A DNA stretch of 64,000 nucleotides, taken from NCBI GenBank assembly GCA_963772365.1, contig CAVYXA010000001.1:1024001-1088000 (forward strand). The letters run 5' to 3'. Below are positions 55,512-61,861 of the stretch, in pieces. A model generated the notes under the pieces. The model did no database searches and was not told the DNA's origin. It saw only the letters and a program-made list of their open reading frames with translations. The position numbers and the translations under genes are program-made. Each line of letters begins with the position of its first letter. Positions within the stretch are counted from its first letter, which is position 1. The stretch is from an uncultured Verrucomicrobiae bacterium. Lineage in GTDB: Bacteria; Verrucomicrobiota; Verrucomicrobiia; Chthoniobacterales; UBA10450.

Positions 55512-55868
55512 TCAATTCTTTGGTGTCGCTGGTTCTGCGGTTTCGGGGATCGCGTCCGGCGGCAAGAACTTTCGCATCTCGTTCAAATCGGATTCAGCTC
55601 CCGGATCCCCAAACTGCTTCGCGCGGAGCATCCAAGTATATGCAAGCTTGTATTGTTTTTTAATGAGAAAATGCCTGCTAAGCCTGGCTGCTGCTGCTGC
55701 ATCGCCATTGTTAGCCGCTGCCGTCGCAGCAGCGAGATCATCTTGCGCTAGCTCGATTGACGATCTGGGACCTAAACGCTCGTGGCTTTTGTAAATGTAA
55801 ACAGCGCCAACGATTAGTGCGACCAGACAAAGGGCCATCGCGCCAGCTTTCGGAATTGAGTTCGTCAC
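55512..55868 (-). CDS. Membrane-anchored Sel1-like repeat protein (candidate immunity)
   Basis: N-terminal TM; AANNGDAAAAARL...AYTWMLRAKQFGDPGA Sel1-like pattern. Confidence 0.6.
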   Translation of the reverse strand: MTNSIPKAGAMALCLVALIVGAVYIYKSHERLGPRSSIELAQDDLAAATAAANNGDAAAAARLSRHFLIKKQYKLAYTWMLRAKQFGDPGAESDLNEMRKFLPPDAIPETAEPATPKN

Positions 55869-55922
55869 ATCAGCGCGAACGGTAAACGGGAATGTATGAA
55901 GCGCATGTCGCCGCTTTAATGT

Positions 55923-56285
55923 CTATGGGGTGGAAGCGGGAGACGGTGTCGCCGTCGAAGTCGGTTGTTTGCCGTTGGACTTGCCGAGTTCTTTTAATTT
56001 CTCTACATCAAGACCCAAAGCGTCGAGATATGCTCGACCGCGCTCCGACTCGATTTGATACCACGCAAAGAAAAGAATCAGAATGAAGGACAGCACAAAT
56101 GAGATGAGGTCTTTCCTTCGAGAGCGGTTAGTATTCAAAAGGTAAACGATCGCCCAGACAATTTGGAGGCCGAGAAGGAAGTAGTAGAGTTCTAACGAGA
56201 CACCCGGCCGCAGGTCCGAAATCACTAACCAGTTTGCGCTTAGCAGCAAAGCGCAAGTTACGAGCGGCAGAATTCGCGCCCTCAT
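55923..56285 (-). CDS. Small 3-TM protein (candidate immunity for mini-RHS 3)
   Basis: Starts 9 nt after the toxin stop; three hydrophobic segments. Confidence 0.6.
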   Translation of the reverse strand: MRARILPLVTCALLLSANWLVISDLRPGVSLELYYFLLGLQIVWAIVYLLNTNRSRRKDLISFVLSFILILFFAWYQIESERGRAYLDALGLDVEKLKELGKSNGKQPTSTATPSPASTP

Positions 56286-56294
56286 CGGCTTGTA

Positions 56295-57017
56295 TCAATG
56301 CCCAAGGTTTATCCGCCCAAGATACAAACCGCTTCCCGCTAGTTGACCATTAAGAAATGTTTGCATCAGGCCGAGATGAAACCCGTTGTCATAGGCAGCG
56401 ACGCTCCGGTCAGAACCAAGGATCGGCACAGCAGGCAGGTTCAGCGACAAAGTTGTCAATAAATTCCCAGGATTTCGAGAATCTCCTGTGCCACATCCAA
56501 AAAGATCAATTGATGCTCCAGGCGCGAGTTTAGGTCCGATCAAGTCTGGGAAGTTCCCATAATTAACGAGACCATTTGGACCTTCTTCAACAAGCAAAAC
56601 GCTTCCGTTTGATACGACGATTGCACTTGCTGGGTTCGCCGCGTTGTCTATCCCTTGCCCATAACCGCCGATGCCGGTTCCAGCAGGGTCATATAAGCCG
56701 TGTCCACCGTAGAATAAGACGTTTCCAATCGACCCCGGTGCCGCTGCTATAATCGCCTGGTTCAGTCCGGCACCCGTGCTAACGCGAGTGACTCGGCCGT
56801 TTACGTCCCGCAGATAAACGTCCAATCCCAGCGGATCAACTCTGTTGATCGGGTCGTTGAAGCCGTAATGATATAAATTTGTTCCGCCGTCTTCTCCGAT
56901 TGGATCGCGGCTCAACCAGCGTCCGATTGTTGGATCATAACCAGCTTTTGCTTGGATCGACAGCAACATACCGGCGATCAGGGCGATCAATAAAACGGAC
57001 GTAATTTTGGAATTCAT
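56295..57017 (-). CDS. Mini-RHS protein 3: signal peptide, RHS core motif, variable C-terminus
   Basis: [64 protein letters not shown]. Confidence 0.85.
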   Translation of the reverse strand: [240 protein letters not shown]

Positions 57018-57080
57018 GGTTTCTTGGGGGCGTTGTGATTCTTTTGTTCGACGATATCCCAGTCTACTCCGGGATGCTCC

Positions 57081-59806: not shown

Positions 59807-59956
59807 GGATGTGCACGCAGCGAAAGGCGGAATCTTATTTCCCGAAAAACAGCAGGTTGAACCAACGCACGAGGCTAGACTGAGGTGCACCACGAAAGGT
59901 TCGCGAGTCCTTTGAACGCCATTTTGCAGCTATGCGTCGCCTCGTTGATCGCGGAG

Positions 59957-60208
59957 TTACCTCAGTGCGCCAGCTATTTCCACAAGAGTTCGCGCGGAAA
60001 CAAGACCAGCACTGCCAAATAATGCAACCTCCGCCCACGTGAGCATGCGGGGGTTCGACCGCCGGGTTCGAATCACCGCGACTATTGCGACAACTGATGC
60101 TGCCACAACTACACCTGCGATAGCGAGGCATGCCCAAATCTGAACAAAATCAATCACTGAAAGAGCAAGAAGAAGAAGCGCAGCAGAGATACGTATCAAC
60201 TGCTTCAT
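59957..60208 (-). CDS. Small 3-TM protein (candidate immunity for mini-RHS 1)
   Basis: Starts 13 nt after the toxin stop; highly hydrophobic. Confidence 0.6.
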   Translation of the reverse strand: MKQLIRISAALLLLALSVIDFVQIWACLAIAGVVVAASVVAIVAVIRTRRSNPRMLTWAEVALFGSAGLVSARTLVEIAGALR

Positions 60209-60221
60209 GCAGAAGTCGCTT

Positions 60222-60791
60222 TTATCGCAGTGGCCCTGGCAGTGAGCTTGGGATTGCGTCAGGCGGGCCGAAAAGGTCTCTGAAAAAATAGAACATCTCG
60301 CTCGAAAAAGATCGACAGCTAGAATTTGTAAGACGATAAGGACCCTGCTGTCCGACCAAGGCGTTCAATATCGCTAATGCACGTAGGTCCTCCTCTGGGG
60401 AGGTCAATAAGTATGATGAAAAGGACTTAGGCGTAGTGCTTCTAAAGTCATCATAAATTGTGCCGGTTAGGCCATAGCGCCAAGTAAAGCCGCTCGTTAT
60501 GTCCACGCCGAAAGTATACGAACCGAGAACAGCGTTCGGTTTGCCGACGTTGATATTCTCATGGGGACTCCAAGGCGGGCCACCAATCCAGATATCTGTT
60601 CCTTTTGGATCTATCAAATTGACGGGGTCATTTCGCACATATGAATAGAGGTTTGGACCCTGACGAAGTTCGGCATTGTCGATCGGATCGCGACTTAACC
60701 AACGTCCGATAGTCGGATCATAGCCGGCTTGAACTGAATTCACGATCAGAACAGCCGCAGCTAGAGCGAGGAATGACTTTCCAACGTTCAT
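60222..60791 (-). CDS. Mini-RHS protein 1
   Basis: [64 protein letters not shown]; ATGA overlap with the upstream gene. Confidence 0.85.
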   Translation of the reverse strand: [189 protein letters not shown]

Positions 60792-61861
60792 GGTTTCTTG
60801 GGGGCAGTGTGATTCTTTTGTTCGACGAGATCCCAATTGACTTCGGGATGCTGCTCTTTTAACAGCCGATGATTTTCCTGGTCAATCATTTCTTTTGCTG
60901 AAAGCGATTTCACTGGACCGCCTACGGGGACGAACTCCCAGGGCGCAAGCTCAACGATCGTGTCCGCCAAATACGTTTTGTAAATGCGGTTCTGCGGCCA
61001 CAGGCGTGCGGCTTCGGCGTAAGCAACGATTGCCTCCGGCAAACGCTTGTGGAATCTGAGCGCGCCTGCCCGCGTTTCCATAAAGATTGCGAGTGCCTGC
61101 TCCGGCCTAAGCGTGCGCAGAGAAATGCCGGATTTAATTTCTTCCCCGGGGATCTTGCGCCAGGCTTTGTACTCTTCATCCGTCTTGAAAACGACACCTT
61201 GGCTCGTTGCTTCCAGATCCCGGAACACGTCCTCGCCTGGCCGTTGCCAGCGAACGAAAAGATGATCATGGGCGCTGACGAGGCCGACTGGATAGCCGAG
61301 CCGTCGGCCGATGGCGACATACAGCACCGGCATCGAAGCGCACGTTCCCACGCGTTTGTCGCTCAACAAACCCGTGAGAAACACATTTGATGGATCGGAA
61401 AGAAATGCCGAGTCAGGTAAGTTCTCGGAATCAGTCAAAGCGGGATTGTACTGAACGCCCAAATCTTGTTCGAGAACAGTCACAATCATTCCCATGGAGT
61501 AGTAGATCTCCGAGTTCTCGTACTGCTCGGGATGTTCTTTGAAACGATGTCGATTCCGTCTCGTTTCCAAATCAACCCGATTGGTCCAGTAATCGATAAT
61601 CTTCAGCGACTTTTGGACATCGACGTTTTCTGAGCCAGGCAGACCTTTCGCGCACAACAGATTCATCTCGGCGATGTCGATGTCTTCGAGTTCGGCCGGA
61701 CTCATTTCGAGAAGGCGACCCAACGTTAGACCGGTGTGCACTGGCGAGATTTGCTGACTGGAAGCTTGTGATCTCCCGCTCGTTTGATAGCGCGCGATCG
61801 GATAGGCCACGGCGCCTCCGATTATGAATGCCATCGCCAAGCCGAGGAAGTAGCGAGTCAT
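60788..61861 (-). CDS. Membrane-anchored transglutaminase-like (SirB1-like) protein with TPR-like C-terminus
   Basis: N-terminal TM (MTRYFLGLAMAFIIGGAVAY); FLTGLLSDKRVGTCASMPVLYVAIGRRLGYPV..V.AHDHLFVRW...DLEAT; helical repeat EAIVAYAEAARLWP. Confidence 0.75.
   Translation of the reverse strand: MTRYFLGLAMAFIIGGAVAYPIARYQTSGRSQASSQQISPVHTGLTLGRLLEMSPAELEDIDIAEMNLLCAKGLPGSENVDVQKSLKIIDYWTNRVDLETRRNRHRFKEHPEQYENSEIYYSMGMIVTVLEQDLGVQYNPALTDSENLPDSAFLSDPSNVFLTGLLSDKRVGTCASMPVLYVAIGRRLGYPVGLVSAHDHLFVRWQRPGEDVFRDLEATSQGVVFKTDEEYKAWRKIPGEEIKSGISLRTLRPEQALAIFMETRAGALRFHKRLPEAIVAYAEAARLWPQNRIYKTYLADTIVELAPWEFVPVGGPVKSLSAKEMIDQENHRLLKEQHPEVNWDLVEQKNHTAPKKP

Follow-up and report, generated by a model that had tools for sequence, protein, structure and literature searches.

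The window analysed here is a 64,000-nucleotide (nt) stretch of contig CAVYXA010000001.1 (positions 1,024,001 to 1,088,000) of an uncultured Verrucomicrobiae bacterium. It contains an array of three small open reading frames (ORFs), toxin candidates A, B and C, in each of which a predicted export leader is joined to the terminal piece of an RHS core and then to a C-terminal domain of its own, and, directly upstream of C, a gene for a transglutaminase-like protein (the partner, or enzyme). The partner and the array probably form a polymorphic toxin system without a shell, the enzyme handling the RHS tip as a tag. This two-gene toxin/enzyme system is widespread and apparently undescribed; the literature consulted, largely without subscription journals, describes neither a protein of leader plus RHS tip nor an enzyme partner of this kind.

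Leader and RHS-tip architecture

The principal genes are the following (aa, amino acids).

60788-62023, minus strand: partner gene, 411 aa, Transglut_core2/TPR-like, signal-anchored
60222-60791, minus strand: toxin candidate C, 189 aa from its ATG (leader 1-22, RHS-tip tag 23-64, variable C-terminal region 65-189)
57772-58446, minus strand: toxin candidate B, 224 aa from its ATG, displaced cassette (leader 1-25, tag 26-68, C-terminal region 69-224)
56295-57017, minus strand: toxin candidate A, 240 aa, displaced cassette (leader 1-25, tag 26-65, C-terminal region 66-240)

Extensions are possible for B, from a GTG reaching 58470, and for C, from a TTG reaching 60836. In the alignment the leaders of A, B and C, of 25, 25 and 22 aa and ending in AKA, ARS and VQA, meet an invariant 14-residue motif at the identical residue. 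This is followed by NLYxYxxNDPxNxxDPxG and then by C-terminal regions that cannot be aligned with one another. The sequence-only reading from which this analysis started had described exactly this arrangement, with three co-oriented ORFs of 189, 224 and 240 aa and unrelated C-terminal domains, and had identified the motif as the end of the RHS core. The NCBIfam profile TIGR03696 (Rhs_assc_core) confirms the identification with 51.6, 50.9 and 48.4 bits for A, B and C against a cut-off of 32.5, each match spanning no more than the last half of the 76-position profile (38-76, 30-76 and 38-75). Pfam finds no YD/RHS repeat, no shell family and no other family in the three proteins, and only the 22-25 aa leader precedes the motif. 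Thus the shell that would lie N-terminal to the core is absent, as had been stated. Signal peptides were judged by a rule of thumb and not by SignalP; all three leaders satisfy it: Lys or Arg occurs close to the N-terminus, the core is hydrophobic, and positions -1 and -3 hold small residues.

The tag of A carries both DPxG-type motifs (DPIGE-18-DPLGL). B and C retain the second (DPLGL and DPKGT), the first being DPLNN or DPIDN at a 21-residue spacing. The pair of DPxG-type motifs that RHS toxins have directly before the C-terminal region, with a spacing of about 17-18 residues, is thus present in full in A and through the second motif in B and C. Pfam at E<=5 returns no match for the three C-terminal domains. 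The domain of A contains GHG…GCG motifs, and an Atlas look-up yielded two weak leads for it, DUF4347 and Peptidase_C80 (both 0.88, below the 0.9 mark), which by eye would fit these motifs. The C-terminal tip of B is a glycine-rich, hydrophobic stretch, and homologues of B are present in L012, L009 and L010, with a nonsynonymous divergence (dN) of 0.32 and saturated synonymous divergence (dS) in comparison with orthologous loci.

The DNA upstream of all three toxin start codons is homologous. The three genes are paralogous cassettes that also share this upstream DNA, and their leaders are diverged paralogues and not independent inventions. The three different leaders of the sequence-only reading are indeed divergent, with small residues at -1 and -3 and the same junction.

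The build recurs outside the window. A search for proteins of near-equal length gave 132 matches at E<=0.001. In 54 of the 120 listed, a hydrophobic leader ends in a small residue at -1 and the motif begins 15-40 residues into the protein; the others are fragments of ordinary RHS proteins. The register is invariant: in 81/81 distinct leader-type members of alignments A2 and A5 the predicted mature protein has the Tyr of the motif at position +2. All 81 have a leader of 20-36 residues (median 25) with Lys or Arg within the first ten, Ala, Gly or Ser at -1 and Ala, Val, Thr, Ser, Ile or Gly at -3. Position +1 is variable, with Gly in 40 of the 81 and otherwise Y, M, V, F, W, H, L or I. In most of the distant members both halves of the motif persist, separated by an insert of variable length, and in some the GR[FW]xxRD element is duplicated. 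Neighbouring genes are under purifying selection, with dN/dS of 0.09-0.27 at orthologous loci. The shared build, the fixed register and the selection on the neighbours together indicate that the leader plus RHS tip is, as the sequence-only reading had proposed, a selected, recurrent form and not deletion debris.

The transglutaminase-like partner and its pairing with tag-led genes

The partner gene, for which an alternative ATG start exists at 61861, encodes a basic N-terminal tail, one transmembrane helix (a signal anchor, predicted N-in), a transglutaminase-like core and a TPR-like C-terminal part. Its TGA overlaps the ATG of toxin C as ATGA at 60788-60791. The sequence-only reading, sound as to the selected leader/RHS-tip form, had missed this conserved 411-aa enzyme, although the coordinates given there take in its gene. 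The partner matches Pfam PF13369 (Transglut_core2) with 26.1 bits against a cut-off of 23.5, seven of seven homologues match as well, and weak TPR matches follow the transglutaminase-like domain. An AlphaFold2 model built on 43 sequences has a mean predicted local distance difference test score (pLDDT) of 84.3 and a predicted template modelling score (pTM) of 0.70. Foldseek against the PDB gave no match for it at E<=0.001. In an exhaustive fold search with VIA-align the top match is menin (3re2_A; Z 15.0, root mean square deviation (rmsd) 4.2 Å, 224 residues aligned), a transglutaminase-like and TPR scaffold that binds short peptide motifs. It is followed by the transglutaminase folds 9crn_A and 4xz7_B (both Z 9.7), by PNGase (Z 7.7) and by LapG (4fgo_A; Z 7.1, rmsd 5.2, 142 aligned), the last being a score that common arrangements also reach. 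LapG-type enzymes are periplasmic, transglutaminase-like cysteine proteases, and they cleave a dedicated secreted substrate close to its N-terminus; at the level of sequence the partner has no match to LapG/BTLCP proteases.

A candidate catalytic triad is formed by Cys228, His254 and Glu271. Among 178 aligned relatives the Cys is retained in 178, the His in 178 and Glu or Asp in 177 (Glu 160, Asp 17). The profile match and the Cys-His-Asp/Glu triad place the partner in the transglutaminase-like superfamily, and from the retention of the triad it looks catalytically active. Its dN/dS in comparison with orthologous loci is 0.09-0.11. The family is large: among 1.84 billion representative sequences 1438 match the partner profile at E<=1e-30, a number that rises to 3593 at E<=1e-10.

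Enzyme and tag-led genes occur together in each of the data sets. A genome scan with toxin alignment A2 left 74 loci, five of them leader-type (L009, L010, L012, L016 and L020, all Verrucomicrobiota). A partner homologue ends at the start of the first toxin gene in 5/5 of these. A metagenome scan with enzyme alignment A3 gave 79 loci, of which 15 are uninformative (no gene end on the contig in seven, less than 300 nt downstream in eight). A pattern search found a tag-led ORF between -40 and +200 nt from the enzyme stop in 54 of the 64 informative loci. Five more are positive by inspection: L134, in which the motif lies further in; L112, in which the ORF begins at +355 nt; L122, in which the toxin is in frame with the enzyme; and L110 and L125, in which the two are fused. 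The total is thus 59/64 loci with a tag-led ORF downstream of or fused to the enzyme, several of which are near-duplicates, leaving fewer independent cases. Among 401 genomes sampled from the phylum of the window the enzyme profile matches nine, six of them strongly, including the genome of the window itself, and a tag-led ORF adjoins the enzyme in 4/4 informative strong loci. Among 401 genomes of the phylum of L062 (Pirellula), 42 match the enzyme at E<=1e-20 and nine at E<=1e-54.

In most loci the tag-led ORF starts between -3 and about +76 nt from the enzyme stop, which together with the ATGA overlap of the window indicates that the first toxin is translationally coupled to the enzyme gene. 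The two products also correspond in their localisation signals. An N-terminal transmembrane helix is present in 42 of the 43 enzymes of alignment A4, whose partner toxins bear leaders. The three separately encoded enzymes that lack the helix (L062/L173, L175, L181) precede toxins that start at the motif without a hydrophobic leader, and no mismatch between helix and leader was seen among the enzyme-toxin pairs examined. These correspondences point to a compartment shared by enzyme and toxin.

Natural fusions bring both into a single polypeptide (P0181, P0190, P0193, P0195, P0196, P0221, L110 and L125). Their layout is an enzyme domain without transmembrane helix, a linker, …RYRNYHPTLGRWIERDP…DPxGL and a C-terminal domain, and the enzyme domain occupies exactly the place of the YD shell in an RHS protein. 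P0195, for example, aligns to the enzyme of the window (41% identity, E 2e-57) and further along to the tag of A (46%, E 2e-9). A search for longer fusions between enzyme and RHS repeats returned four proteins, all of them tandem or extended enzymes lacking RHS repeats, which is weak evidence.

In L122 (144-2036) and in P0204 a membrane-anchored enzyme ORF reads without a stop into a toxin leader and tag; the product may be two proteins by way of an internal start. In six loci (including L120/L121, L091 and L090) a gene near that of the enzyme encodes a secreted protein of some 615-621 aa that by eye resembles a beta-propeller, and in L120/L121 it replaces the tag-led toxin.

Displaced cassettes, candidate immunity genes and the integrative island

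Pieces of the enzyme gene are found upstream of the downstream toxins, the longest being the following.

57013-57081, minus strand: partner 3′-end remnant upstream of A, a 69-nt repeat 88% identical to 60787-60855

This remnant comprises the last codons of the enzyme gene and the start region, and by blastx it matches the C-termini of partner homologues. A shorter enzyme 3′ remnant lies upstream of B, and in L012 and L009 the second copies are preceded by remnants of other lengths. P0001 has a B-like leader although its overall identity to A is 90%. By these remnants B and A are displaced cassettes, C being in the coupled, 'active' position. The process is displacement of the rhs C-terminal type, but with the enzyme gene as the constant unit.

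Just beyond the enzyme 3′ remnants of A and B lies a 142-nt direct repeat, 95% identical between 57068-57209 and 58488-58629; it matches nothing in Rfam, its fold is not unusual, and the related loci hold no relatives of it. The fold of the 218 nt of RNA upstream of A has a z-score of 0.10. About 600 nt between a 221-aa ORF and cassette B (58630-59227) contain no convincing ORF and have no detectable homologue in the fetched loci or in the rest of the genome; they may be a decayed cassette.

TIGR03696 has eight matches in the source assembly: one on contig C4, three on contig C3, three in the window and one weak match. The C4 gene (105323-110551, L001) is the one full-length RHS gene of the genome, of 1742 aa in a 1743-aa frame. 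The end of its core is near-identical to the tag in protein sequence, and its C-terminal region is 47% identical to that of B over 143 aa, with a common sub-domain of about 90 aa followed by divergence. This shared beginning suggests a common pre-toxin module with interchangeable tips, and by it the small proteins draw on the same toxin pool as RHS proteins with a shell. In blastn the sole similarity between the array and the rest of the genome is to the C4 rhs gene, 70% over 179 nt, which is too low for recent exchange between the two. The three C3 copies (about 397.9-406.9 kb, L002-L004) are in frames of 342, 281 and 120 aa in which YD-repeat sequence precedes the core; they have no leader and a different core end (AYHPVIGRFMSEDP), and IS3-family transposase genes lie between them. 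By these features they are classified as classical orphan rhs C-terminal fragments. The distinction drawn in the sequence-only reading between the window genes and classical orphans is upheld, since the former have leaders of their own and the C3 orphans look different.

Loading of the small proteins as cargo in trans into a shell encoded elsewhere, an option in the same reading, is not supported: the similarity to the C4 rhs gene is no higher than stated above, and three of the five other carrier genomes lack a core match in a frame of more than 1000 aa, a weak argument in draft assemblies.

Every toxin ORF is followed by one or two small ORFs with hydrophobic N-termini, two after C, one after B and two after A, and the ORF list agrees with the earlier description of small membrane-protein genes in these positions.

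59957-60208, minus strand: 83-aa ORF, predicted membrane protein, candidate immunity gene for C
59228-59893, minus strand: 221-aa ORF, transmembrane-rich N-terminal half and soluble domain, candidate immunity protein
57235-57633, minus strand: 132-aa ORF, N-terminal transmembrane helix, candidate immunity gene for B
55923-56285, minus strand: 120-aa ORF, several transmembrane helices, candidate immunity gene for A
55512-55868, minus strand: 118-aa ORF, N-terminal transmembrane helix and helical domain, candidate (possibly orphan) immunity protein

The 83-aa ORF has no family match in Pfam, NCBIfam or PADLOC, and the 120-aa ORF none in Pfam. The likely start of the 221-aa ORF is an internal ATG about 30 codons in; a homologue 79-81% identical lies in L012 behind a different C-terminal region (dN/dS 0.27). 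The 132-aa ORF has a 72% identical homologue in L012, there upstream of a B-like toxin (dN/dS 0.10), and the 118-aa ORF a 73% identical homologue in L009 after a different C-terminal region (dN/dS 0.15). From their position and membrane character these proteins are presumed immunity factors, and as such they would fit toxins that act on the envelope.

The whole toxin/enzyme system rides on a 10.35-kb integrative island in a tRNA-Glu gene.

52006-52081: tRNA-Glu, with attL within its 3′ end
52054-52079, plus strand: attL, tRNA-Glu 3′ end, a 26-nt perfect direct repeat with 62401-62426
52168-53412, plus strand: tyrosine integrase of the island (PF00589, 30.9 bits)
53378-53644, minus strand: HTH_17 gene within the island
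54080-54940: AbiEii-type gene of the island, with an overlapping 111-aa ORF upstream
62401-62426, plus strand: attR, second copy of the 26-nt repeat, closing the island

The guanine-plus-cytosine content is about 0.50 in the island and about 0.55 in its flanks, and a homologue of the integrase is found at the same relative position in L009. Rfam detects only the tRNA over the island. The promoter and terminator scan was uninformative (6 promoter-like sites for 5.6 expected, 6 terminator-like sites for 8.7 expected). The gene directly preceding that of the enzyme in two separate Verrucomicrobiota assemblies (L010 4462-5478, L012 2421-3437) encodes a tyrosine recombinase of 338 aa, with the same N-terminal sequence in both. 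The system may travel on more than one type of integrative element.

Proposed mechanism, related systems and rival explanations

The mechanism favoured here is as follows. The product of the first gene would be an inner-membrane-anchored enzyme of transglutaminase (papain-like) fold, facing the periplasm and composed of the triad-bearing domain and a TPR-like domain. The second gene, coupled to the first, would give a Sec-exported pre-toxin. After the cut by signal peptidase the final ~40 residues of the RHS core (YDPxxGRWxxRDP … NLYxYxxNDPxNxxDPxGL) would lie exposed, beginning one residue in from the new N-terminus, with the variable toxin domain behind this tag. The RHS tip would no longer plug a YD shell and would instead be a portable tag bound by the enzyme, which would most likely process the pre-toxin and free the toxin domain at or near DPxGL. 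The enzyme would thereby replace the shell as the constant part. New toxin/immunity cassettes would enter by recombination in the 3′ end of the partner gene and in the DNA that encodes the tag, and would push the older ones (B, then A) downstream with leader and tag intact. A broader proposition is advanced more tentatively, as less likely than not: that the ~40-residue tip of the RHS core is an autonomous, portable toxin tag read by a dedicated Cys-His-Glu enzyme in a shared compartment, and that this constitutes an unrecognised pathway of maturation or delivery.

The system compares in part with several known ones. In the accessible part of the description of Photorhabdus laumondii Rhs1 (PMC8636562), the C-terminal cut falls after two DPLGL motifs 17 residues apart, the second of which holds the catalytic Asp, and residues 1263-1357 form the plug, which sits inside the barrel wall as an embedded part. 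With such Rhs/TcC YD-shell toxins the window proteins share the motif of the core end, two DPxG elements before a variable C-terminal region, a common C-terminal repertoire (B and the C4 RHS protein) and downstream immunity-type genes. In contrast, they have no YD repeats, barrel or PAAR/VgrG/TcB context, they keep about 40 plug residues, a Sec leader takes the place of more than 1000 residues, and a Cys-His-Glu enzyme is the constant partner. Displaced cassettes downstream of an active one, each with a 3′ piece of the constant gene, are also known from orphan rhs C-terminal/immunity arrays, as far as the accessible parts of PMC2935791 and PMC3967940 describe them. In the window, however, the retained piece is from the enzyme gene, and each cassette keeps its start codon, leader and full tag. 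The cassettes are thus not of the classical orphan kind, the constant upstream gene being transglutaminase-like and each cassette having its own ATG and leader.

A transglutaminase-fold module linked to membrane or secretion and to RHS-type polymorphic toxins has been described by Zhang et al. 2012 (PMC3482391). According to the accessible text of that article, N-terminal transglutaminase domains with degenerate triads follow a signal peptide or transmembrane helix, are fused to RHS repeat arrays and were suggested to be surface anchors. Set against this description, the present enzyme is apart: its triad is invariant, RHS repeats are absent, and it usually forms, together with a toxin that has its own Sec leader, a pair of coupled genes, the fusions being shell-less and free of repeats too. 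It does not, therefore, correspond to an inactive N-terminal transglutaminase domain of an RHS toxin. Neisseria MafB, in the accessible part of PMC4287609, likewise combines a signal peptide, a short constant region, a variable C-terminal region, immunity genes and cassette arrays, but its constant region is unrelated and is not an RHS tip, and that part of the article describes no transglutaminase-like partner. In its constant part, swapped C-terminal regions and cassette arrays the window system has the properties of a polymorphic toxin system in the sense of Zhang et al. 2012, the C-terminal region of B type occurring in four genomes and on a full-length RHS protein. With LapG the partner may share a papain/transglutaminase fold and a periplasmic role towards one class of exported proteins (the weak fold match to 4fgo_A, Z 7.1), but sequence-level relation is lacking and substrates and gene context differ.

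Several observations weigh against the proposed mechanism. Binding, cleavage, toxicity and immunity are all inferred, and the export signals of the family are rule-of-thumb predictions. The Pfam match of the partner is marginal (26.1 against 23.5 bits), and its top fold match, menin, is a non-enzymatic peptide-binding scaffold, a resemblance that a pure anchor or a chaperone would explain as well. The toxin gene is absent from 5/64 informative partner loci (L097, L106, L120/L121 and L146). L127, L143 and L161 are without the first half of the tag, only the RDP…NLYxY…DPxGL part being kept, and the second half was missed by the pattern in 27 of 62 ORFs, several of which have it further downstream by eye. 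The A4 pairs were in part selected by the presence of an ATG 12-48 codons ahead of the motif. Pairings of toxin and presumed immunity gene vary between genomes, homologues of the small ORFs adjoining different C-terminal regions in L009 and L012. In addition, all-against-all clustering of 1843 ORFs from the loci revealed no conserved third gene, such as an outer-membrane exporter, only the enzyme/toxin pair and their antisense shadows being conserved. With no exporter gene conserved, delivery, and with it any route across the outer membrane, is unexplained.

As an alternative, the same genes could encode a non-catalytic anchor or chaperone whose cleft holds the tag at the inner membrane, release being by aspartyl autoproteolysis of the tag at DPxGL. 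The resemblance to menin (Z 15.0) and the persistence of the second DPxG motif in all three proteins, and of both in A, are in keeping with this, as is the peptide-binding anchor role that the accessible text of PMC3482391 proposes for the N-terminal transglutaminase domains of RHS toxins. Those domains, however, are described there as having lost their catalytic residues, and the retention of the triad here in 178/178, 178/178 and 177/178 relatives is hard to explain without catalysis. Moreover, some 40 of the roughly 80-95 plug residues remain (plug extent after the accessible part of PMC8636562), with no barrel in which to fold. A purely structural role is thus held to be unlikely, though it is the most serious of the alternatives. 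A transamidase of sortase-like logic, coupling the toxin through its new N-terminus or tag to an acceptor at the surface or envelope for display or vesicle loading, would make use of the transglutaminase fold with its complete triad, would account for a motif at +2 in 81/81 members with Gly at +1 in 40 of them, and would agree with loci that have no separate exporter. Yet leaderless and fused cytoplasmic forms offer no free N-terminus before the tag, the +1 residue is variable and no acceptor is known, which makes coupling of this kind improbable.

The fixed register of the leaders (81/81) speaks directly against a further view, in which the three ORFs are ordinary orphan cassettes, a silent reservoir for the full-length C4 rhs gene, with incidental leaders. 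The presence of that single full-length gene, with a core end near-identical to the tag and a C-terminal region that begins like that of B, is what this view has in its favour, but the DNA of the array matches it at only 70% over 179 nt, the true orphans of the same genome have YD remnants and no leader, and the conserved upstream gene is an enzyme gene and not rhs. The three of five other carriers without a long core frame, drafts that they are, add a weak argument, and the view is given very little credence. Comparably small is the probability that the array is an addiction or abortive-infection module which stabilises the island and is no weapon against other cells. It does lie on a small integrative island beside an AbiEii toxin-antitoxin gene and encodes no exporter. 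However, PADLOC has no family for the enzyme, the three toxins or the five small ORFs, the neighbouring AbiEii gene alone matching, and multi-cassette arrays with swapped C-terminal regions, one of them common to a full-length RHS protein, are the signature of polymorphic toxins.

If the broader proposition of an autonomous tag is true, the enzyme, and not a YD shell or a known secretion adaptor, would be the constant machinery of a toxin system whose cassettes are exchanged at the 3′ end of the enzyme gene, and the pathway would be encoded by more than 1000 gene clusters of Verrucomicrobiota, Planctomycetota and others from soil and freshwater. The array is also a displacement array of a second kind, one whose constant gene encodes the enzyme and not the body of the toxin. 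A large transglutaminase-like family without specific annotation is now defined, and a concrete candidate substrate is offered for it. A pool of uncharacterised toxin and immunity domains is also revealed in poorly studied phyla. Until now the only role assigned to RHS core ends has been that of a self-cleaving plug in a large YD shell; in the present system the motif is under selection without a shell, behind a Sec leader and together with a specific enzyme, which raises the question of what the minimal functional unit of an RHS toxin is and whether the tip can act as an independent tag or cleavage module.

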